Shown piece after piece: positions 5,154 to 30,916 of a stretch of 64,000 bases of DNA (the stretch's first letter is position 1; each line of letters begins with the position of its first letter). The stretch comes from a virus. Taxonomy: Duplodnaviria > Caudoviricetes. The stretch lies in IMG/VR virus record IMGVR_UViG_3300037067_011362, positions 3,281 to 67,280 of that record, one strand, 5' to 3'. The notes beneath the pieces are model-generated. The model saw nothing but the letters and a program-made list of their open reading frames with translations, did not search any database and was not told where the DNA came from. The translations under genes and the position numbers were made by a program.

Positions 5154-5858
5154 ATGACGATAACGGTCGTAGCGGACACCACGGTAGGCGGATCTATAAC
5201 GGCAGCGGCTACGGCCGTGTCCGCGCTAGGTGCCGTCATTGGGACCGCCCTACCCGCGGCATCAGCTCAGTTCGACGGGTACACGAGACTCTCTATCCCG
5301 GCCCCGTCGTTTTCGATAACCGCCCAGCTAGCAGTGGCGGCGGAGGCTCTAGCTACGGCTACCGCTACGCTTTCCGGTATGCCCGGGGGTGTGGCGGCCG
5401 CTGCTGCGTTAGCCGCTGGAATGGCAGCCCAGGCCGCGGCGTTGCTAACAATCTCAGGAAGCTTCCCGTCGATCGCCGGCGACATCGAATCGGCGGTAGC
5501 CTCCATGGCTGGCCTCAACTGCGCAATCAACGCCGGTGTGGTCGGACCTAACATCGATCTACCCACGATCACGGCTCGGCTCGGAGAGATCGGGGCTTTG
5601 GTGGCATCCCTGAACGCTCAACTGGCCATCGCCGCAGAGCTGTCCGTGTCGCTCAATGCCGGCGGTGTGAGGGTAATCCGTTTCGACGGGGACCTGCTCT
5701 CGGCTGGCGCAGAACTCGGGGCGTACCTGAGCGCGTCGGGTCTGGGAGGTGGAGGTCTGGGCGGGGGCGGGCAAGCCTCAGTCGAATCCCACTTCGTCCT
5801 GATGCTTCCGACGACTAGCGGGGCATGGACTGGAATCCAAGCCACTATGGCGACTTGA
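5154..5858 (+). CDS. Ala-rich hypothetical protein in baseplate cluster
   Basis: 234 aa ORF co-oriented with and tightly spaced among baseplate genes. Confidence 0.55.
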   Translation: MTITVVADTTVGGSITAAATAVSALGAVIGTALPAASAQFDGYTRLSIPAPSFSITAQLAVAAEALATATATLSGMPGGVAAAAALAAGMAAQAAALLTISGSFPSIAGDIESAVASMAGLNCAINAGVVGPNIDLPTITARLGEIGALVASLNAQLAIAAELSVSLNAGGVRVIRFDGDLLSAGAELGAYLSASGLGGGGLGGGGQASVESHFVLMLPTTSGAWTGIQATMAT

Positions 5859-6309
5859 AACGGCAGACGAACCCAGGGACGGACGAGTAGTACTCACAGT
5901 CGATTCCCTGGTGGTCGCAGTCGTACCAACCTGGGGGGCACTTCAGGCACGCGCCAGCGGCTTCGACCCAGCGGCTTCGACCGTCAGACGCTTCTCCGCA
6001 CGGATCGTCCTCGGGGCTGTAGGTGGCTCCACCTATTCCGGATCCTCCAACTCCAGATCCTCCGCGCGAAACCTCCACGTATCCGCCGGCCCCGACAGTC
6101 GAGGCGCCGCCAGTTCCAGAGCCACCCACGCTGGCGTCAGGGGTGGTTTCCGAGGCTGTGGCCCCTCCGGTCTCACCGCGTTCCAAAGAGCGCTCTGCGG
6201 AGGCGCCAGCTTCGCCACCGAGACCATCGTTGTGACCGTTCGAATCACCATCGTCAGCCCCAGAGCAGGCGACCGCCAAAACCGCGAGAACTAGGAACAT
6301 TTTGGTCAT
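5845..6309 (-). CDS. Lipoprotein (moron-like) with Gly-rich linker and Cys-rich C-terminus
   Basis: Signal peptide MTKMFLVLAVLAVAC with lipobox, GGS/GGA linker, C-terminal CLKCPPGWYDCD..C. Antisense to the tail operon, with TATAAT 6 nt before the ATG. Confidence 0.75.
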   Translation of the reverse strand: MTKMFLVLAVLAVACSGADDGDSNGHNDGLGGEAGASAERSLERGETGGATASETTPDASVGGSGTGGASTVGAGGYVEVSRGGSGVGGSGIGGATYSPEDDPCGEASDGRSRWVEAAGACLKCPPGWYDCDHQGIDCEYYSSVPGFVCRFKSP

Positions 6310-6315
6310 AGTAGA

Positions 6316-6321
6316 ATTATA
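6316..6321 (-). promoter_or_regulatory. Perfect -10 box (TATAAT) for the probably leaderless lipoprotein mRNA
   Basis: Minus strand reads TATAAT-tctact-ATG; no consensus -35 seen. Confidence 0.5.
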
Positions 6322-6347
6322 CGCCAATCCGGCCAGAGGGCTTCCTT

Positions 6348-6734
6348 ATGACTGATTTTGGCCGAGATTTGTGGTGCGACGGCGACACTAGACCCGACTG
6401 CGCCGAGGTCACTGGCCTTCCGCTCGTAGCCCAAGCAGTGATCCGACGGTGGGAGACTCCGCGCGGCGGCTGCTTCTACGATCCGAACTACGGGGAGGGG
6501 CTTCTTGATCTGGTGCACCAAGCCGGGATCACTGGACCCGACGTGGCTTCGCTACTTGAGCGCGGATCAATGAAGGACGAGCGTGTCGATTCTGCGAGCG
6601 CAGAAGCCACGATCGATGTCGAGAGCGAAACGATTACGGCCACCGTCCGCCTAGAGACGTCATTGGGGCCGTTCTCTATGACGGTCTCAATAGACGCTCT
6701 GCGCGTGGAGCAACTCACAATGGTCGAGGGATAA
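6348..6734 (+). CDS. Baseplate wedge protein (gpW/gp25-like)
   Basis: TPRGGCFYDPNYGEGL motif, 128 aa, directly before the J-like gene. Confidence 0.85.
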   Translation: MTDFGRDLWCDGDTRPDCAEVTGLPLVAQAVIRRWETPRGGCFYDPNYGEGLLDLVHQAGITGPDVASLLERGSMKDERVDSASAEATIDVESETITATVRLETSLGPFSMTVSIDALRVEQLTMVEG

Positions 6735-7918
6735 TGCTGACGTATAACCAGCTCACCACTCCGCCGACGCGCGAGCAAATCCTGCAGTCGATGGTCGACA
6801 AGCTGAGGGAGCTCAAATTCACGGCCACCGCGTGGCAACCAGGATCGATCGCCTATTCGATTCTGTACGCCATCGCGTGGCTATACGCCGGGCTCGGCGA
6901 GGTCGTAAGCACCCTAACCAAGTCGCGCTATTCCGAGACCGCCGAAGGCGAGTTCCTCACTAGACTCAGCGCGTCGGAATTCGGCAACAATCGGCAACTT
7001 GCACTATCGGCGCGACACACTGAAGTTTTCACGTGTGAGACAGGAGAGGGACCTTACACGTTCGTCGCTGGTGACCTCGTGGTTTCTGACGGATCCAGGA
7101 CATTCCGCAATGTGACCGGAGGAACCGTTTCGGACGGTTCTCCCCTTTCACTCACCATCGAGGACGAGATCGCTGGAAGCGGCGGGAACGTGGCGTCTGA
7201 CACGATCACTCAGATGATGGTGTCCGTGGTTGGGGTGACATGCTCGAACCCTCCAATCGGATCTACGGGAACCTCAATAACCAGGTACGGGCTAGACGAA
7301 GAATCCGATACCAGATTGAGAGTGCGCAACCGGACCAAGATGCCGGTGCTGTCGACAAGCGCGGAAACCACCGATGAGAAAATCATCGGGGTGGTTCTGA
7401 ACGCCATTCCGGGAATCGAGAAGGTCAAGGTCGGCTCTACAAATCCACGCGGACTCGGGACTGTTGACGTCTACGTAGCAGGGAGAATCGCCACGGCCGA
7501 CGTTGCCGACGTTGCTGCTGCGCTTGCGCTGGTGCGCACGCTATTCCTGAATCCTTCTCCTAGAATTGGACTAACCGCGTCGCTCACGCAAACCCTGACT
7601 TTCTCGGCTACCGTGATGTGTGATCCAGCAGTGGGTAAAGTCGCGGTACAGCAACTTTTAGAGCAAGGGAACGGAACAAGCAACTTTGGGGTGCTGAATG
7701 AACTCCTTGGAGACCTTCCGATCGGTGGAAACTCCTACAGCAACGGTTCGAACAACGTGCTGCTCCGTAACGAGATCATCCAGACGATCGAAAATACACA
7801 GGGGGTAGTAGGGGTTTCGCTCACTACGCCAGCGGAGAACGTGGCGGTATCGCCGTTCCGTGTCCTGATTCCACCAAGCTCGTGGTCGATAACCTACGTC
7901 GACACGGTGGTGACGTAA
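6734..7918 (+). CDS. Baseplate J-like wedge protein
   Basis: AEGEFLTRL, GLDEESDTRLRVR and RGLGTVDVYV motifs. Confidence 0.9.
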   Translation: MLTYNQLTTPPTREQILQSMVDKLRELKFTATAWQPGSIAYSILYAIAWLYAGLGEVVSTLTKSRYSETAEGEFLTRLSASEFGNNRQLALSARHTEVFTCETGEGPYTFVAGDLVVSDGSRTFRNVTGGTVSDGSPLSLTIEDEIAGSGGNVASDTITQMMVSVVGVTCSNPPIGSTGTSITRYGLDEESDTRLRVRNRTKMPVLSTSAETTDEKIIGVVLNAIPGIEKVKVGSTNPRGLGTVDVYVAGRIATADVADVAAALALVRTLFLNPSPRIGLTASLTQTLTFSATVMCDPAVGKVAVQQLLEQGNGTSNFGVLNELLGDLPIGGNSYSNGSNNVLLRNEIIQTIENTQGVVGVSLTTPAENVAVSPFRVLIPPSSWSITYVDTVVT

Positions 7919-22504: not shown

Positions 22505-23010
22505 TCACGGAAGGACGAGACACCCATCCTGCTCCACCTGGTCTAGTGGGCACCCCATGGAGCAAGCGTACACACGCCGCGCCATGTCCCATGCGGAGTC
22601 GTCCTGCGGGTGCTGCCCGGGTAGCAGGTCGATCGTGATGGGCAGGTCGCGAGATTTCGGGCTGCGTCCGGGTAGCCCCCGGGCTAGCCGATAGCAGTGA
22701 TACACGACCCTCATGACTCGTCCTCGTCCAGATAGTCCCAGCCGGCCGCGGCCACCAGGTCGTGGATGATCTCCTCGTCGTCCCGGTCGTCGTCCGACTC
22801 CGGGCTACGCCAGTAGTCAGGGCCCAGGTGAGCGACCACCAGCTCCACCATGCGGCCACACCTATGCCGAGCGTCCGCGGTCTGGTAGGGCGTACCGTGC
22901 CACGACCCGTCGTCCCCCCGATACTCGATGGGGGATGAGGCCTCGGACAGATCGCACCGGGTGATGAGGGAGTCGAAAGCGAATCGCGTAACGTATGCTT
23001 GGGTTTCCAT
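22505..23010 (-). CDS. Two small early hypothetical genes (22711..23010, 22505..22714)
   Basis: Coupled by overlaps downstream of the duplicated genes. Confidence 0.55.
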
Positions 23011-23627
23011 TACGTGGTCTCCAATAGGGTGAGTAAATCCGCCAGTGACCGCTCGTAGTCGGCGGCTCCGACGGAGTAGGCTTCGTAGTTGACCGCAACC
23101 CCGGCGGCGTAGGCGGCGGTGTCGGAAGTGTAGGCGGCGGCGAAGTAGGCGGCGGAGTAGGCGTCGGCGGCGGAGTAGGCGGCTGCGGCGGCGGAGTAGG
23201 CGGAGTAGGCGGAGTAGGCGTCGGCGTCGGAGGCGTCGGCGGCGTCGGCGGCTGCGTCGTCGTAGGCGTCGGAGTAGGCGTCGGCGGCGGAGTAGGCGGC
23301 GGAGTAGGCGGCGCGCAGCTCGTTAGCCGATGCATCACCCCGCGCAAATCTCTCCGCCGCATCGCACGCTGCGACACTACGTGGGTCAGGCGCGGCTACC
23401 TGTGACAGGGCGCGCCGAGCCGATGCCACGGCAGCTAGACGCAGCACCCGGTCGGGTAGTCCCGTGGCGTAGCAGAGGGCCCAGTAGCGATCCTGCGGGG
23501 GTATGGGGATGGCTGCTACCTGGCGCGGGGAGAGCCCCTCGACGGGGATGAGGTCGGCGAGACGATCGTCAGAGTAGCAGGCGTGAGCGCCTCGAGCTGA
23601 GGCTCTCGTGAGTCGATATGCTGGCAT
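23010..23627 (-). CDS. Imm5-like domain protein with Ala/Tyr-rich repeat, paralog B
   Basis: DPRSVAACDAAERFARGDA motif followed by AAYSAA repeats. Confidence 0.7.
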   Translation of the reverse strand: MPAYRLTRASARGAHACYSDDRLADLIPVEGLSPRQVAAIPIPPQDRYWALCYATGLPDRVLRLAAVASARRALSQVAAPDPRSVAACDAAERFARGDASANELRAAYSAAYSAADAYSDAYDDAAADAADASDADAYSAYSAYSAAAAAYSAADAYSAAYFAAAYTSDTAAYAAGVAVNYEAYSVGAADYERSLADLLTLLETT

Positions 23628-23629
23628 GA

Positions 23630-24289
23630 TTACGGTGTCTCCAGTAGGGTGAGTAAATCCGCCAGTGACCGCTCGTAGTCGGCGTAGGCGGCGTCGTAGG
23701 CTGCGTAGTTGACCGCGACCCCGGCGGAGTAGTGGGCGGCGGAGTAGGCGGCGGAGGTAGCGGAGTAGGCGGAGGCGGAGGCGGCGTCGGAAGTGTAGGC
23801 GGCTGCGTGGTATACGATGGCAGTGGCGTTTGCGGCGTCGGCGGCGTCGTAGGCGTCGTAGGCGTAATCGGCGCGGTGCGCCTCGGCGGCGGCGTCGGCA
23901 ACTGCGTAGGCGGCGGTGGCCGCGGTGGCCGCGGCGGAGGCAACTGCGTAGGCGACGGAGGAGGCCTCTTCCATCTCCGTAGCTGACGCTTCCCCGCGGA
24001 CGTAGCGCTCCGCGACGTCGCAGGCCGCTACGATCCGCGGGTCTGGAGACGACATCTGCCCTAGGGCACGGCGTGCCGATGCCACGGCAGCTAGGCGCAG
24101 TGCCCGGTCGGGTAGTCCCGTGGCGTAGCAGAGGGCCCAGTAGCGATCCTGCGGGGGTATGGGGAGCGCCGCCACATCACGCGGGGAGAGCCCCTCGACG
24201 GGGATGAGGTCGGCGAGACGATCGTCAGAGTAGCAGGCGTGAGCGCCTCGAGCTGAGGCTCTCGTGAGTCGATATGCTGATTCTGGCAT
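23630..24289 (-). CDS. Imm5-like domain protein with Ala/Tyr-rich repeat, paralog A
   Basis: DPRIVAACDVAERYVRGEA motif; near-identical N- and C-termini to paralog B. Confidence 0.7.
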   Translation of the reverse strand: MPESAYRLTRASARGAHACYSDDRLADLIPVEGLSPRDVAALPIPPQDRYWALCYATGLPDRALRLAAVASARRALGQMSSPDPRIVAACDVAERYVRGEASATEMEEASSVAYAVASAAATAATAAYAVADAAAEAHRADYAYDAYDAADAANATAIVYHAAAYTSDAASASAYSATSAAYSAAHYSAGVAVNYAAYDAAYADYERSLADLLTLLETP

Positions 24290-24381
24290 GACGGGGTCTT
24301 TCGTTGAGGGAGCAGCTCGGCTCCAGTGCCGCCGGCTGCCCCTCACCGTAGTCAGGGGCAGGTTGGCGGGACGGGAGACTA

Positions 24382-24642
24382 TCAGCGAGCGGGGCCGGCC
24401 CACTCAGAGTGGCCACCAGCGACGGTGGTGATCTCGATGTCGTGGTGGGCTAGATACGGGCGGTCAGCCGCTACCGACGCGGCGTGCTCACGGGCCTCGG
24501 CGAGCGACGTCGTCGCGAACTGCGGCAGGCACTCGGCCCCGCTCGTGCTCGGGTAGAGTACGATGTGAGTGTGGGCTACCGTCACCGTGTGGGTGCGGCA
24601 GTCGTAGGTGGCAGCGCGACGGATGTTACGAAGGTCAATCAT
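24382..24642 (-). CDS. Small hypothetical, first gene of an early operon
   Basis: GGGAG RBS and a sigma70-like promoter upstream. Confidence 0.65.
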   Translation of the reverse strand: MIDLRNIRRAATYDCRTHTVTVAHTHIVLYPSTSGAECLPQFATTSLAEAREHAASVAADRPYLAHHDIEITTVAGGHSEWAGPAR

Positions 24643-25384: not shown

Positions 25385-26806
25385 TCAACCACCAGCCACC
25401 TTCTTTCTAAACACTTCGGCAGATTTTGCGATTGCGGCTCTCTGGATCTGACCGTCCACGAAGTCCCACGGCATCGGCGTTCCAACAGCTAGACGCTTAA
25501 TGGTTAGCGCTGGCTCTCCAGTGATCATAATAGAGCCTTCCCTCCCGCTTCTGACCAGCGAGAGCGTTCGTTGGTTCTTCTTGTCGCTGCGTCCAGACAC
25601 GTGATCTATCTTTAGACCGTACGTCTTACTCAACCGTCTACGCAGTGACCACGACCATGCCCTGGCGTCTTCGCCTGCGGCCTCCCATTGCAGAGGGGTC
25701 CCCGGTTGAGGGAACAGCGGTTGCCATCGGATCTGAATCTGCCCTACGGTACGCGCCACCGTCAGCAGTGAGCGATCTATCGCTCGCAGCGCGTGGGCCA
25801 GTTCCTCGCACGAATCCGGGGTCTCACCAGGGAGACCCGCGATCATGTGCCACGCGATACGGGTACTCTTCACATCACGCTCGTGGAACCTAGAGAAAAG
25901 GCTCGCGGTTGCCTCGCATAGAAATTCGTTGGTGAGTCGCGGCTTCCCGATCGCAACACGAACACACTGAGTCGCCGCTTCTACTCCGAAGTTGTACTGC
26001 TTGTTGTAGTAGAGAGACCCAGCCGAATCGTACTCCTCGTCCATCGAAGCGGTACACCCCGTGTCTGTCTGGCCTGCCGCGGACATAGCTTTCCTGATCT
26101 CAACGATGTCCGGGTGGGCCTCCGCGTCGCAAGCTTGCAGGTGGACGCTAGGGATGCAGCGGATGGACTTTAGGATTTGCGCGGTGGAGTTGTGGCGCGG
26201 TTTACCCAACCACCCGAGGCCGCAAAACAGACACTTCTTGGGGCACCCGCGGGATATTTCCACGCGACACTGGTGGGCCGCAGCCGTCCCTCGCAAAGAA
26301 ACGGACACGTCGCGTGCGTAGCCGCGCACTAAGCGGTCCGTGCGTTCGTTGTGCTCGGTAGGAACGAACACGCCAGCCACGCGAGCCGCGAAGGACAGGA
26401 AAGCCGCTGTGTTGCCATGTTGCGCCCACAATCGCAGGAGATCAGGCAGCGAATCCTCGGCGTCCCCGAGCACGACCAGATCCACGAAGTCAGCAATCGG
26501 TAGCGGGTTGAATGTGCCTTGCCCTCCTGCCCACACGAAAGGATGAACGCCGAATTGTCTGTCCTTCGACATCGGTGGCACGCGATGACGACGTAGGGCC
26601 TTCGGGATCTGGAACATCGAAGCAAACTCGTGGACGCCCAGGAACAACGCGTCCGGATTCGTTTCGTCGCAAGAGAGGACGAGCCCGTGAGGCCTCCCGA
26701 TCTCAGCCACCAAATGAAGAGGGAAGGTAAGCCCCCCCTCCCCGTGGTGTCCTGTATTGGCTCGGAATGAATCCCAGGTACCGAGCGTGTCGGCGCGAGC
26801 TCTCAT
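25385..26806 (-). CDS. Radical SAM enzyme (COG1032/TIGR03960-like)
   Basis: EISRGCPKKCLFC CxxxCxxC motif, N-terminal WAGGQGTFNPLPIADFVDLVVLGDAE, FGVEAAT, MIAGLPGET, PQPGTPLQW, C-terminal PWD. Confidence 0.9.
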   Translation of the reverse strand: MRARADTLGTWDSFRANTGHHGEGGLTFPLHLVAEIGRPHGLVLSCDETNPDALFLGVHEFASMFQIPKALRRHRVPPMSKDRQFGVHPFVWAGGQGTFNPLPIADFVDLVVLGDAEDSLPDLLRLWAQHGNTAAFLSFAARVAGVFVPTEHNERTDRLVRGYARDVSVSLRGTAAAHQCRVEISRGCPKKCLFCGLGWLGKPRHNSTAQILKSIRCIPSVHLQACDAEAHPDIVEIRKAMSAAGQTDTGCTASMDEEYDSAGSLYYNKQYNFGVEAATQCVRVAIGKPRLTNEFLCEATASLFSRFHERDVKSTRIAWHMIAGLPGETPDSCEELAHALRAIDRSLLTVARTVGQIQIRWQPLFPQPGTPLQWEAAGEDARAWSWSLRRRLSKTYGLKIDHVSGRSDKKNQRTLSLVRSGREGSIMITGEPALTIKRLAVGTPMPWDFVDGQIQRAAIAKSAEVFRKKVAGG

Positions 26807-27486
26807 GCCGGCACCGCCACCAGGGCCTCCCGCTCCTTCAACCAGTACGGAGGAGCAATCGTGGAGTACCCCTGGGGAGAGTTACCCATGTCGAGCCCTG
26901 GTGTTTCCAAAGGAAGAGGACGCAGAGGAAGTCCACATTGCATTATAGGGAATCCTTCCCCCCATGTTTTTTTGGGTGACACCTCCCACTCTCGGACTCT
27001 GCCCTTCCCGCTACCCCGGTACTTCCCGAGGTAGTGGCAGCCGGACAGGATTGCTCGCACGCTCTCGATGTGTCCCAGCGCGTACCACGTCACCAGATCA
27101 TCTTTTGGTATCGCCAACTCCTTCTTCGCGAAATAGCTCTTGTCCTCCGCGACCGAGATATTGACTCTCGTGATCGATGCGTCTCCGAACCGTGCGTACT
27201 CGATCCATGGAGCACGACGCCCCATGATAAACTCGTCGTGTTCCTCGACCTCGAACTCTCCACTTGAGCAGAGGAAAAATCGACCACACGCGCTCTTTGC
27301 GATCGGGATATCAGGAAGTGGCCAATCCCGCGGATCTCCTTCGGGTTGAGCACTCACGCGCTGAGCGAGCAAGATCGCGAGAAGCGCGTCGAGTTGGGGG
27401 GCGCGCCTACCGGCGAACCCCTCACCCATCAGGCGGCACTTGACCACCATCGGTTCCGTCAGCTGTTCACTTGACCACGTAACCAT
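26803..27486 (-). CDS. csf3: Type IV CRISPR Cas5-group protein Csf3
   Basis: LDALLA N-terminus, WYALGHIESVRAIL, G-rich loop YLGKYRGSGKGRVREWEV, LRPLP, PPYW. Confidence 0.88.
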   Translation of the reverse strand: MVTWSSEQLTEPMVVKCRLMGEGFAGRRAPQLDALLAILLAQRVSAQPEGDPRDWPLPDIPIAKSACGRFFLCSSGEFEVEEHDEFIMGRRAPWIEYARFGDASITRVNISVAEDKSYFAKKELAIPKDDLVTWYALGHIESVRAILSGCHYLGKYRGSGKGRVREWEVSPKKTWGEGFPIMQCGLPLRPLPLETPGLDMGNSPQGYSTIAPPYWLKEREALVAVPA

Positions 27487-28463
27487 TGGGCAATGTCGTC
27501 CTTTCGCTCAGCAATGCGAGCCCGGAACAATGTTCCTACCATGCCAGCTAGGTCGTCCCCCAGGTCCTTCCCGATCTGTGGCTGAAGAGTGAAAGGAACC
27601 TGGTGTCCTTGAAGGAATGTCAACTTTCCGAAGCCCTCACGCCCCATTCCACCGACCCGAAAGTTGGAGATGAGACCAGCGAAGACGTAGTTGAAAGCAT
27701 CGAACTCCACGTCGTTGTATGTTCTCGCCTCGACCGCTCCCCAAAGCAGCGCCCCCGAGATGATGTGTTGAAACGACCTGGGCATCATGGTGGATTTGTG
27801 CTGCTTAGCCATCTTCGAATCCCCGGATTGGTGCGCTAGTTCCCGAAGCCGTTGCTTGTCGTATACAGCGATCTGTTCACCTTCCGAGAGCAGCTTGACC
27901 TTCTCTGGGACCAGCTCCGGATCCATGGTGACTCGTTGTGCTCGTGCAGTGAGTGGGCGCCACGAGCAAATGCCTTCGTTGTTCTGTTCCAACCACGCCT
28001 TAACCCACCGCGGCATAACGCCCAGGTTCTCGGTGCATATAAGGTTTAGTGCGTCCACGTTGATCTGTCCCGGCTTTGGACCGTTATCGATGCAACCACC
28101 GAACAGTGGAAGCACAGGGAAGATCGTGCAGAGCTCTCGCCATCGGTCGATATTGAGCACTGACGCGTCACCCTTCCCGGTGGTCGTCCCCCCGTTGAAC
28201 AAGAGTCGGAGAGCTCCTCGGGTCATGCCAGACGACTCCTTGAGAAGCCCAGCGGCGTCAAGGGTTAGAAGCATAGCTGCCTCGCGCAGCTTGTGTCGCA
28301 CCGAATTGCCGGTGACGGTTGGACGATGGACGATCTCCCCTCCTGGTCGACGCACCTTGGCGCGCATGATCATCGCCACATTCCCCACTGTTCCGCGGTG
28401 GTGAGCGATACCCTCTCCATCTGCCCGAACAATGAACTCATACCGTGTTTGCTGGAATCCCAT
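27459..28463 (-). CDS. csf2: Type IV CRISPR Cas7-group backbone protein Csf2
   Basis: TGNSVRHKLRE, LLFNGG, FPVLPLFGG, GQINVD, IISGALLWG, RVGGMGREGFGK. Confidence 0.93.
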   Translation of the reverse strand: MGFQQTRYEFIVRADGEGIAHHRGTVGNVAMIMRAKVRRPGGEIVHRPTVTGNSVRHKLREAAMLLTLDAAGLLKESSGMTRGALRLLFNGGTTTGKGDASVLNIDRWRELCTIFPVLPLFGGCIDNGPKPGQINVDALNLICTENLGVMPRWVKAWLEQNNEGICSWRPLTARAQRVTMDPELVPEKVKLLSEGEQIAVYDKQRLRELAHQSGDSKMAKQHKSTMMPRSFQHIISGALLWGAVEARTYNDVEFDAFNYVFAGLISNFRVGGMGREGFGKLTFLQGHQVPFTLQPQIGKDLGDDLAGMVGTLFRARIAERKDDIAQWLRGQVNS

Positions 28464-28471
28464 GATTGTTC

Positions 28472-28909
28472 CTACTCCTGAAAAAGCCCGTTGGCTCGGG
28501 CGGCGTCTTCGATCTCGTCGGCGGTGAACTTGAGCGATTGCTCGGCTTCTTTCTCCTCCTTGCGAGAATCCACAGTGAGGCGCGATACCCCAATCAGAAA
28601 TGCAGCGTTGCGCTCGATGAACGTGAGCACGTCGTCTTCCTTGCCATTCTCGTCGACCCAGTTCGATAGATCAACCAAAGCCTGGCAAGCGGATTTGTCC
28701 AGCCCCTTGATTTGGAGATCGTTCTGTAGGCTTTGCCCCATCTCTGGGATCGTCTGCTCGCTCGTTGATACCACGAGCATATCCTGGATCCTGTCCCAGT
28801 ACCCTGGAGTGACTCTTCCGCTTCGACTCGCGATGTACCCGCGCCGGTACCCGAGTATCATCTCCACCACTAACGTCTCCACTCGCTTCCGTTGTTCGTT
28901 TGTTAGCAC
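28472..28909 (-). CDS. cas11: Cas11-like small subunit
   Basis: 145 aa all-helical protein (YWDRIQD...LQI) between csf1 and csf2, as in type IV-B. Confidence 0.72.
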   Translation of the reverse strand: MLTNEQRKRVETLVVEMILGYRRGYIASRSGRVTPGYWDRIQDMLVVSTSEQTIPEMGQSLQNDLQIKGLDKSACQALVDLSNWVDENGKEDDVLTFIERNAAFLIGVSRLTVDSRKEEKEAEQSLKFTADEIEDAARANGLFQE

Positions 28910-29822
28910 GTCGTTTCTCTTTCTCGGCAGAGAGTTTCTCCGCCTTCGTTAGTTTCTCACGCTCTTGCCTAGCTTCGACATCCCTCTCATCTCTTTGGGC
29001 AAGCCAAAGCGCTAGCTTGAACCACCCCCCGCCGCGCTTCCCGCGGTGTGCCGTTTCGAAGCACTCAATGTCGTCACGGCACCTGATCCACGTGTTTGAT
29101 CGATAGTCTCCAGCGTCGATCTCTTCTTTGGTCCCACCAGCCGTGAGTAGGGATGCCATGTCGCGAACCAGATCCAGGGATTTCGGAATGGCCACTAGGT
29201 CATCTTCGAAAATGACCACGCCACCGCGACCAGGGCCATTCAATGGAGCCCACGGGGTTACGTGCTTCTGTCCACTGTCGGCAATCGAGGCGAACCACGT
29301 GCCTTGGTGGTTGCGATCCAAGAAAGCCAGTATTAGTGGCTTCTCTCCTTTGCTGGCATTGGCGTATCCGACAACCACTGTTCCGTCCGGAAGTGCAGGG
29401 GAGTTCCATCCCTGCTCCAGGATGTGAGAGTAGTTGCGCCAGTTGCCACCAGCCGAGGCTTGGCCGGATCCTTCGCACTTGGGACACGGGTCCCCGACCT
29501 GGCACGTGCGAGTCTTTCCCTTCTTCTGGACCTCTGTAACGAAACCAGTCCCATCGCACCCCTTGCAGGCCCCAGCGGGGCGGCCAGGGACGGGCCAGAG
29601 ACGGCGAGCTAGCATCACGCAGGCCGCGCACACATGGGACGCGTACGGGGCTCGCACGCGGTTCTGGTCGGTATAGTTGGATGACATCCATTCGCGGACC
29701 GAAAGACCTACGGTAACAGGTCCCGCGCATTGGTAACAGACTCCGGAAGCTTCCAGGCAACCCTCAACGGGAGGGCTACCCAACAGAGTCCAAAGAAGGT
29801 TTGGTGCTGAATCGGTTGTCAT
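28671..29822 (-). CDS. csf1: Type IV large subunit Csf1 (Cas8-like) with inserted DnaJ-type zinc finger
   Basis: CYQC...CAAC zinc site, GNWRNYSH, IADSGQKHVTPWAPLN, KEEIDAGDY, LALWLAQR. ATG 29822 overlaps the upstream stop (ATGA). Confidence 0.85.
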   Translation of the reverse strand: MTTDSAPNLLWTLLGSPPVEGCLEASGVCYQCAGPVTVGLSVREWMSSNYTDQNRVRAPYASHVCAACVMLARRLWPVPGRPAGACKGCDGTGFVTEVQKKGKTRTCQVGDPCPKCEGSGQASAGGNWRNYSHILEQGWNSPALPDGTVVVGYANASKGEKPLILAFLDRNHQGTWFASIADSGQKHVTPWAPLNGPGRGGVVIFEDDLVAIPKSLDLVRDMASLLTAGGTKEEIDAGDYRSNTWIRCRDDIECFETAHRGKRGGGWFKLALWLAQRDERDVEARQEREKLTKAEKLSAEKEKRRANKRTTEASGDVSGGDDTRVPARVHRESKRKSHSRVLGQDPGYARGINERADDPRDGAKPTERSPNQGAGQIRLPGFG

Positions 29823-30916
29823 TTTTCCTCCGTCACACGGATCCTGCCGAAACCGAACGCCACCTTGCCGCCGTATCCTAGGCCTAGCGCGCAGCACTGC
29901 AGGAGGAAACGACCCACCGCGTTGGTCTCGATGATGGCGTGCCCAGCCCAGCCAGCAGTGCGCCCGAACTCGCGATTGCGTCCCGCTAGAGCCACGTATC
30001 TTTCGCTGGTCGAGCCTTCGATAAGCTCCATGCGTACGGTGTTTGGTGCAATGTTGAGGCCCAGGCGGCGCGGCATGAACCCCTCGAGTGTGCCTCGCAG
30101 GTGGCGTGAGTTGGGGGTTATGTGCACCATTGAGCTCCCGTACGCGCGAATGTGCACCGGCGTGATTGCGTCAATCCTCACCTTGTACGTGCCCGGTTTG
30201 TAGCACGGAGCCTTGACCCTGACGAGTGATCCGAACCGGATCGTCACCTCCCGCTCGCCGAGCATGATCTCATGCTCACGACCAGCAAGAGCACGCACAG
30301 CATCATCCTCTGCCAAGTATGCCGCCCACCCACAACCGCTAGGCCACGGGAGCAGAGCAAAGCGCGGCATGTGAGGCATGTGCGCCCCGGTCAGCGACGT
30401 CATCACTCCGTGCAGAGCGGACAGCTGCCAGTGTTGGAAGGTCTGGTGATTCGAAAGCTCGATCGTTGCGAATCCGCCGGGTAGGTAGTCGAGACCCGGG
30501 CATGGTAGAAGCCACGGCTCGATCTCGGGTACGGGTTCGCTCTTTTTGCGCTTCGACGCTTCCTTGGCGGCCAGTCGACGAGCGGCGACGCGCGCCCGGT
30601 GCTCGCCCTTGTGCGTAGCGTACCAGGCCGCAGAGCGCGCCCTGTTCTTCTCGACCTCTGAAGGGTTCGCACGCTCAAGCTGGTAGCGGCGCTTGTACCG
30701 GCAAGGATCCGAGCAGTAGGAGTGTCCCCGGTATTTGGGGACAAAGGGGGTGCCGCAGATTTCGCAAGGCTCCGTGTAGGTTTTGCTTGTTGGGTTCGTG
30801 CGGCAGTAGGCTGTTCGGTGCTCCGGGCAGCAGTACATCTGGCGCGCGTTCTTCGGCTCGAATCCGATGCCGCACTCGGGACACATGCGAAGATCAAGGT
30901 TTAGTGGAGCGTTCAT
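29819..30916 (-). CDS. cas6: Cas6-like RAMP endoribonuclease with N-terminal tandem zinc fingers
   Basis: C-terminal Gly-rich loop GLGYGGKVAFGFGRI, ITPVHIR, SALHG. N-terminal CPEC..CCPEH and CEIC..CSDPC fingers. Confidence 0.8.
   Translation of the reverse strand: MNAPLNLDLRMCPECGIGFEPKNARQMYCCPEHRTAYCRTNPTSKTYTEPCEICGTPFVPKYRGHSYCSDPCRYKRRYQLERANPSEVEKNRARSAAWYATHKGEHRARVAARRLAAKEASKRKKSEPVPEIEPWLLPCPGLDYLPGGFATIELSNHQTFQHWQLSALHGVMTSLTGAHMPHMPRFALLPWPSGCGWAAYLAEDDAVRALAGREHEIMLGEREVTIRFGSLVRVKAPCYKPGTYKVRIDAITPVHIRAYGSSMVHITPNSRHLRGTLEGFMPRRLGLNIAPNTVRMELIEGSTSERYVALAGRNREFGRTAGWAGHAIIETNAVGRFLLQCCALGLGYGGKVAFGFGRIRVTEEK

Follow-up and report, generated by a model that had tools for sequence, protein, structure and literature searches.

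What does it mean when a type IV-B CRISPR-Cas operon, in which a cysH-like gene is nearly invariant and likely key to function (PMC7038947, PMC8175902), carries a radical S-adenosylmethionine (SAM) enzyme in the place of that gene? The role of the CysH-like gene in IV-B was still described as unclear in 2026 (PMC13676074). The question is raised by the 67,280-bp IMG/VR genome of an uncultured tailed phage (record IMGVR_UViG_3300037067_011362, estimated to be 81% complete), bases 3281-67280 of which form the 64,000-nucleotide window analyzed here. Its minus strand holds an operon with the order ZnF-Cas6-like gene (ZnF, zinc finger), csf1, cas11, csf2, csf3 and, in last position, the radical SAM gene. 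IV-B is the least understood CRISPR-Cas subtype, and the swap offers a testable clue to its function. The evidence below indicates that the radical SAM enzyme is very probably dedicated to the Csf module as its partner, standing in functionally for the CysH-like protein CasCysH without being a homolog of it. The combined reading, in which this dedicated partner fills the CysH role by acting on DNA held or reached by the complex, is given a probability of roughly 0.55. The features on which the question turns are the following.

25385..26806, minus strand: radical SAM enzyme of 473 aa in the CysH slot, with PF19864 and PF04055 above their cut-offs

26222..26245, minus strand: CxxxCxxC motif (C188/C192/C195), which binds the radical SAM [4Fe-4S] cluster; read in the sequence and invariant in 35 aligned members

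26360..26623, minus strand: Radical_SAM_N2, a Rossmann-like N-terminal domain at residues 62-149 (PF19864, 4.3e-17, 62.4 bits, cut-off 29), which resembles a cobalamin-binding domain

26803..26806, minus strand: ATGA overlap of the csf3 stop and the radical SAM start, read in the sequence and consistent with translational coupling

26803..27486, minus strand: csf3 (Cas5), 227 aa; PADLOC typeIV_Cas5 1.8e-24, with a weak TIGR03116 match

The junction reads ...cggcATGAgag..., with the radical SAM ATG at 26806-26804 and the csf3 TGA at 26805-26803, as had been noticed in an earlier sequence-only reading of this locus. The long radical SAM start is backed by an N-terminal 'MRA...' block conserved in 34 homologs, while one gene caller chose a shorter, 442-aa form. 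Beyond the N2 domain, the enzyme contains the radical SAM core (PF04055, 2.8e-9, 37.8 bits, cut-off 29.5) at residues 182-339, and gives no Pfam match to PF01507, the PP-loop family of CasCysH and 3'-phosphoadenosine-5'-phosphosulfate (PAPS) reductase. The cluster-binding motif, described as intact in the sequence-only reading, is indeed so: a 35-member alignment shows no variation in the N-terminus, the three cysteines or some 50 further positions, and no other cysteine is conserved. The likeness of the N-terminal domain to that of COG1032/TIGR03960 enzymes is likewise borne out. PF19864 is present and TIGR03960 is the best NCBIfam match (2.1e-20), but membership fails, with 72.8 bits against a cut-off of 462.3, and by profile score the protein is a relative of TIGR03960, not a member. 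A search of 5.8 billion proteins delimited a clade of 71 clusters, with E values between 1e-187 and 1e-44; after a gap, the next matches set in at 1e-12 with TIGR03960-like proteins. The closest homolog (P0002) has 61% identity, and clade members come almost entirely from metagenomes, with none among GenBank phages (INPHARED) or PLSDB plasmids. Longer forms, such as Csf3-radical SAM fusions, were not found, which is weak evidence.

In canonical IV-B loci, the position after csf3 belongs to a CysH-like gene. In Skermania phage SPI1 (KR011061), orf40-43 are csf1, cas11, csf2 and csf3, and orf44 encodes a PF01507 protein overlapping the csf3 end. The haloarchaeal plasmid of Actinarchaeum halophilum has the same gene order, with its CysH-like gene after csf3, and two actinobacterial plasmids carry cysH nearby on the opposite strand. 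Among 40 IMG/VR loci retrieved with a window-type Csf1 profile, csf3 is followed in 36 by a CysH-like gene, directly or with a small gene in between (PF01507 confirmed in all five tested), and one, on the contig of locus L003, has the radical SAM gene. The CysH-linked phage loci share several traits with the window, namely a long Csf1 tail, an optional ZnF-Cas6-like gene and an optional small gene. The adjacency of CysH stated in the sequence-only reading is thereby borne out, and direct comparison with the CysH-linked loci places the radical SAM gene in the same slot, as that reading had proposed. Neither the complete 67-kb record nor three further viral records with the radical SAM gene contain PF01507, although the same search picks up CasCysH in SPI1 and in the five related phage loci, and a local CysH profile found no match in the window.

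The window agrees with IV-B in its csf1, cas11, csf2 and csf3 genes (PADLOC) and in the absence of an array and a helicase, and departs from it in having the radical SAM gene instead of a cysH-like gene. Because the core genes, the missing array and the affinity of Csf2 all fit, with the cysH-like gene replaced, the locus is regarded as a variant of IV-B. Compared with the IV-B systems of Mycobacterium sp. JS623 (PDB 7JHY), SPI1 and Actinarchaeum, it contains the same four core genes in the same order, lacks an array, adaptation genes, DinG and RecD, is borne on a mobile element, and has an enzyme gene overlapping the csf3 end. By contrast, its enzyme belongs to the radical SAM proteins and has no relation to PAPS reductase, its longer Csf1 carries both a DnaJ-type zinc-finger insert and a clamp-type tail motif, and a ZnF-Cas6-like gene leads the operon. 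The remaining operon features are listed here.

27459..28463, minus strand: csf2 (Cas7), 334 aa; PADLOC typeIV_Cas7 2.1e-32; the best PDB sequence match is 7jhy, the IV-B Csf2

28472..28909, minus strand: cas11, the small subunit; PADLOC typeIV_Cas11 1.5e-4; homologs in 10 related loci with the same csf1 overlap

28671..29822, minus strand: csf1 (Cas8-like large subunit), 383 aa from the ATG at 29822; PADLOC typeIV_Cas8 7.3e-19

28674..28700, minus strand: GQIRLPGFG at the C-terminus of Csf1, a conserved variant of a tail motif that is QLxLF in many homologs

29819..30916, minus strand: zinc ribbon and basic helix fused to a Cas6-like RAMP (repeat-associated mysterious protein) domain, 365 aa; its C-terminal Gly-rich GFGFGRIRV is conserved in L046 and L053

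The linkage of the enzyme to csf genes was assessed in 34 loci with clade members, scanned using profiles built from the window Csf proteins; 21 loci were informative, having enough sequence on the upstream side, after removal of duplicates. The homologs do not occur mainly without csf genes, the pattern named in the sequence-only reading as telling against it: csf3 lies beside the radical SAM gene, directly or with one small gene between, in 20 of the 21. The usual order is csf1-cas11-csf2-csf3-(small gene)-radical SAM, with a convergent arrangement in L059 and L061, and the adjacency spans Csf backbones that are only 20% identical. Partial co-diversification is suggested by Mantel comparisons of pairwise distances, in which the radical SAM proteins track Csf3 (r 0.45, p 0.0008) and Csf2 (r 0.39, p 0.036); Csf2 and Csf3 distances track each other much more tightly (r 0.91). 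A Csf2 search of 401 Myxococcota genomes gave only two matches and was uninformative, and a complex prediction for the radical SAM enzyme with Csf3 and residues 30-325 of Csf1, run without controls, scored 0.00 and is evidence neither way.

The lone exception is L068, where the radical SAM gene occurs without csf1, csf2 and csf3. Its radical SAM protein differs very little from those of L059 and L061, both csf-linked, so the enzyme cassette seems to have been moved to this locus recently. The order in L068:6550-11172 is a DnaJ-type zinc-finger protein, a small 'PHAV' protein, the radical SAM enzyme, an HNH endonuclease (PF01844, 5e-14) and a DUF262/GmrSD_N-like gene. The first of these (L068:6550-7383) is a free-standing version of the DnaJ-type zinc-finger module found as an insert in the window Csf1. 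A 'csf3-like' open reading frame (ORF) suggested in this locus by BLAST clustering was rejected, being the small 'PHAV' accessory protein and not Csf3. A different arrangement, csf2-csf3-csf1-radical SAM, is seen in L048, L049 and L064 (e.g. L048:1055-4722), with a short, SPI1-like Csf1 that has no clamp-type tail.

The enzyme is not only linked to the Csf backbone but also exchanged on it. In a Csf2 tree of 49 loci, built with no IV-A or IV-C outgroup and with branches counted as well supported at a Shimodaira-Hasegawa-like approximate likelihood ratio test (SH-aLRT) value of at least 95, the radical SAM and CysH labels interleave, requiring seven changes, at least five of them forced by supported branches. 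The window, L046 and L047, all radical SAM-linked, group with the CysH-linked L086 (support 99); the radical SAM-linked L004 is sister to the CysH-linked SPI1 (support 97); and the tree also pairs L001 with L100 and L057 with L097. The window Csf2 sits in a tree that also holds the SPI1 and actinobacterial plasmid IV-B loci. L086 (IMG/VR UViG_3300020213_000513) is as close to the window as are the nearest radical SAM-linked relatives, with identities of 47% (Csf2), 42% (Csf3), 39% (Csf1) and 34% (Cas11). It has the same clamp-type Csf1 tail and the same optional Cas6-like and small genes, but a PF01507 CysH-like gene follows csf3 where the window has the radical SAM gene. Likewise, L004 and SPI1 share 50% Csf2 identity and a fully colinear csf1-cas11-csf2-csf3, whereas the Csf2 proteins of L004 and the window are only 20% identical. 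The csf-linked radical SAM proteins are monophyletic (support 100), and the L004 enzyme falls inside their crown group. That the accessory enzyme can be swapped, as the sequence-only reading had supposed, follows from the interleaved labels of the Csf2 tree and from L086 being as near to the window as its radical SAM-linked relatives. The simplest reading of the trees would be that phage IV-B operons have exchanged the enzyme as a cassette, one radical SAM lineage repeatedly taking the place of a CysH-like gene. In a search of 8 million open papers and preprints, the surveys of 2020, 2021 and 2025 among them, no account of type IV systems with a radical SAM partner was found (subscription-only literature lay outside the search), and the word 'radical' is absent from the IV-B reviews and the 2025 classification update.

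What chemistry might the stand-in perform? The AlphaFold2 model of the enzyme (predicted local distance difference test score, pLDDT, 92.5; predicted template modeling score, pTM, 0.91) was compared with known structures using Foldseek and VIA-align, giving an architecture of an N-terminal Rossmann-like domain, a radical SAM barrel and a C-terminal domain. The partial TIM-barrel core is matched by many radical SAM structures at a Foldseek probability of 1.00 and VIA Z scores of 10-23. The best match is MgmA (9ccb; Z 23.1, root-mean-square deviation 3.4 Å over 356 residues, 17% identity), followed by CysS (Z 19.1) and MiaB (18.3), and then AprD4, RimO, OxsB, TsrM and TokK; the N-terminal domain superposes on those of MgmA, CysS, TsrM and MiaB. 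The modeled fold is class-B-like, and cobalamin binding is at most a possibility. The class B cobalamin-dependent enzymes MgmA, CysS, TsrM, TokK and OxsB have the same three-part architecture (Z 23.1 for MgmA and 13-19 for the others), but they differ in sequence (13-17% identity), in that the window enzyme gives no PF02310 match, and in context, which for the latter is a CRISPR-derived complex and not a biosynthetic cluster.

MiaB and RimO also share the Rossmann-like N-terminal domain and radical SAM core (Z 17.6-18.3), and RimO is the best PDB match by sequence, over the cluster-binding region only, but their auxiliary-cluster cysteines and TRAM domain are absent from the window enzyme. A MiaB-type methylthiotransferase was considered and ruled out on the lack of conserved auxiliary-cluster N-terminal cysteines and of a TRAM domain (Pfam); TIGR00089 scores only 0.026, far below its cut-off. 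An Atlas structure search returned bacterial PF19864 and PF04055 proteins at a template modeling (TM) score of 0.88, some of them fused to DUF2344, and the nearest Atlas neighbors by features were viral clusters. These bacterial TIGR03960/PF19864-PF04055 proteins have the N2 domain and core in common with the window enzyme, which is shorter, viral and far under the TIGR03960 cut-off; the searchable literature held nothing relevant on TIGR03960/DUF2344 function.

Clues to the substrate come from the nearest other relatives of the enzyme and from the tail of Csf1. In IMG/VR loci L005-L045, a two-gene phage cassette consists of a ParB_N protein (~190-220 aa) immediately upstream of a Radical_SAM_N2-type radical SAM gene (40 of 41 loci), often within a few kilobases of the large terminase gene; no description of this cassette was found in the searched literature. 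In profile comparison, the ParB_N-linked enzymes score 388 (E 1.6e-49) against the csf-linked clade, compared to 257 for a TIGR03960-like profile built on four sequences only. These relatives have the same N2 and radical SAM architecture, are borne by phages and have an upstream nucleic-acid-binding partner; they differ in forming a separate clade (support 100) with 22-27% identity, and in that the partner is ParB_N and not the Csf complex. They also give weak PF02310 matches. ParB_N partners are typical of DNA-directed modules.

Among 120 Csf1 homologs (P0228-P0347), 50 contain QLx[LM]F within the last 40 residues, against 0.015 expected from shuffled tails, and the motif occurs only once elsewhere in the same proteins. 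QL[SD]LF is the bacterial beta-clamp-binding consensus. Most other Csf1 homologs end in Qx[RK]LPGF[DG], the form seen in the window (GQIRLPGFG), and we infer that a tail of this type may also bind the clamp. SPI1 and a Mycolicibacterium plasmid, whose Csf1 proteins are of the short canonical kind, lack the clamp-type tail, and the searched literature contained nothing relevant on Csf1 and the sliding clamp. Taken together, the ParB_N relatives, the L068 neighbors and the Csf1 tail make DNA at replication forks the favored site of action. As a candidate substrate, DNA that the complex holds or reaches is given somewhat less than an even chance. That the accessory enzyme is a nucleic-acid or nucleotide modifier, as the sequence-only reading had suggested, is plausible, the same three clues being circumstantial support for it.

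The radical SAM enzyme fills the operon slot, and presumably also the role, that the CysH-like PP-loop enzyme has in canonical IV-B systems, here in an array-less phage module. In the mechanism proposed, the Csf ribonucleoprotein would provide targeting and the enzyme covalent chemistry on whatever the complex holds, while the clamp-type tail of Csf1 would bring the complex to DNA that is being replicated or is marked by the clamp. On such DNA, the enzyme might modify a base or sugar carbon via the 5'-deoxyadenosyl radical, possibly with a cobalamin-type methyl relay, and the modified DNA would be silenced, marked or blocked, serving phage self-protection or inter-element competition. Because PP-loop and radical SAM enzymes are interchangeable, the outcome should not depend specifically on PAPS or sulfur chemistry. 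The boldest form of the proposal, a clamp-docked CRISPR-derived ribonucleoprotein that delivers radical SAM chemistry to DNA (or RNA) by means of a warhead cassette swapped between PP-loop and radical SAM enzymes, is speculative and, on balance, doubtful.

Several observations weigh against the combined reading. We know of no class-B-like radical SAM enzyme that acts on nucleic acids, and the best structural match, MgmA, methylates a protein. The window enzyme has no B12-binding domain match (PF02310) at E<=0.1. Its Csf1 tail is the variant GQIRLPGFG and not QL[SD]LF, and CysH-linked backbones have the clamp-type tail as well, whereas the radical SAM-linked L004 and L048 do not; the tail is therefore a trait of the phage backbone and not of the radical SAM enzyme. 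Viewed from the Csf side, the radical SAM form is rare, being found in one of ~38 complete IMG/VR loci. The two enzymes are also not strictly exclusive, as L071 is the only locus seen with both: in L071:1391-7025, a CysH-like ORF (1391-2647, local profile 1.5e-11) and a radical SAM gene (5676-7025) flank the csf genes. Finally, a purified IV-B Csf complex bound heterogeneous non-CRISPR RNA (PMC7937560), making RNA a possible substrate.

This co-purified RNA is the first of the points for a reading in which the enzyme modifies RNA, either that of the Csf filament or a bound transcript, for example by RlmN/Cfr-like C-methylation, and so inactivates or marks it. RNA-bound MiaB (Z 18) and tRNA-bound RlmN (Z 11-12) are among the structural matches, and the operon opens with a Cas6-like RNA-binding subunit. 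However, MiaB-type auxiliary-cluster cysteines and a TRAM domain are lacking, the RlmN/Cfr matches cover the core barrel only, and DNA is what the clamp-type tail and the nearest relatives' ParB_N partners suggest, leaving RNA an unlikely substrate.

An enzyme that makes a modified nucleotide or small molecule upon Csf engagement, such as a viperin-like chain terminator or a signal, would parallel the proposal that CasCysH AMPylates substrates or makes second messengers (PMC13676074). Many class-B-like relatives act on small molecules (TokK, CysS, OxsB and AprD4), and viperin appears among the weaker fold matches (Z 9.8), but the enzyme lies outside the viperin clade and no conserved sensor or effector gene is found beside the operon. 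An enzyme bound to the complex accords better with the tight translational coupling to csf3 and with the recurrence of the gene in one and the same slot, and small-molecule synthesis is considered quite improbable.

MgmA methylates a glutamine of methyl-coenzyme M reductase, and an MgmA-like modification of a protein, whether one of the Csf subunits or, on the host side, the sliding clamp or a defense protein for example, might be read from its standing as the best structural match by ~4 Z units. Weak NCBIfam matches to TIGR04014 (0.0016) and to TIGR03975, a C-methyltransferase family of the type acting on ribosomally synthesized and post-translationally modified peptides (RiPPs; 8.5e-7), are in keeping with this. 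Yet MgmA identity is just 17%, no precursor-peptide-like or conserved substrate gene was seen, and a CysH-like PP-loop enzyme in the same slot is hard to square with one shared protein substrate, so that a protein target carries only about a one-in-ten sort of plausibility in our judgment. That the adjacency is incidental, with the radical SAM gene an unrelated phage moron inserted after csf3, might be argued from the csf-less clade member L068, but is scarcely credible given csf3 adjacency in 20/21 informative loci with backbones only 20% identical, the overlap of start and stop codons, and repeated insertion into the exact CysH slot.

If a clamp-docked Csf complex does deliver radical SAM chemistry to nucleic acid, it would be the first Cas effector complex with radical-mediated nucleic-acid modification as its output, in place of cleavage, binding or signaling. 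Exchange on unchanged backbones with the same optional partners shows the accessory enzyme to be a modular warhead, and the swap argues against IV-B functions that need PAPS or sulfur chemistry. L086 and the window, and SPI1 and L004, provide matched pairs for swap comparison. The Csf1 clamp-type tail is a second testable handle, pointing to replicating DNA, and radical SAM activity offers an easy read-out (5'-deoxyadenosine) for what the complex recognizes.

A small protein of ~90 aa lies between csf3 and the enzyme gene in many loci, radical SAM- and CysH-linked alike, and has the motifs ..W[FY][IV]TxHAxxRY.. and ..WRGxKPRRLR..LVTVL..HD. It has no Pfam or PADLOC match, stays beside the radical SAM gene in the csf-less L068, and was searched for in the window but not found. 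In L052 and L057, it is fused to a zinc ribbon and basic helix, which in the window are fused instead to the Cas6-like domain. Examples, not an exhaustive list, are the following.

L052:3358-3963, L055:350-658, L056:659-943 and L060:248-616: small protein

L063:433-726, L003:9464-9781, L068:7512-7958 and L086:9326-9802: small protein, further loci

The gene that leads the operon overlaps its neighbor in the same manner as csf3 does, a second ATGA at 29819-29822 joining the stop of the Cas6-like gene to the csf1 start. Its window product has no direct family match (Pfam, NCBIfam, PADLOC), and its AlphaFold2 model (pLDDT 46) was not used. Homologs in the CysH-linked loci L100 (6958-7998) and L099 (7037-7999) lie near the Pfam Cas6 thresholds, with family scores in related loci of 23.1 bits for PF01881 (cut-off 23) and 23.4 for PF10040 (cut-off 25). 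These near-threshold homologs support a putative Cas6 identity for the leading gene, a class said to be rare in IV-B, with 12 instances (PMC7038947).

The csf1 start at ATG 29822 is confirmed by a 383-aa database protein with a 100% match. The 5' part of cas11 lies within the 3' end of csf1 in another frame (28671-28909, minus strand), and a csf1/cas11 overlap of ~90-110 nt with homology in both frames is found in five further loci (L001, L003, L046, L052 and L057). The overlapped Csf1 tail is translated, as the conserved motif at the very end of Csf1 shows. The DnaJ-type CxxCxGxG zinc finger inside the window csf1 (29461-29567, minus strand; DnaJ_CXXCXGXG, 1.3e-4) also occurs in L046 and, in shorter form, in L003, and not in other family members.

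Neither the window nor the first 3.4 kb of the record showed a CRISPR array or mini-array, no related locus has an array, and the operon genes gave no helicase (DinG/RecD) matches in Pfam, NCBIfam or PADLOC. A promoter and terminator scan yielded nothing above shuffled expectation. The phage also has tape measure, baseplate J, Sak4-like, SNF2 helicase and terminase genes. Two tandem paralogs (23010-23627 and 23630-24403, minus strand) follow immediately downstream of the operon and are not retained next to it elsewhere among the loci; the N-terminal domain is common to both, and their long Ala/Tyr/Asp/Ser-rich repeats account for all of the tandem-repeat calls in the window.

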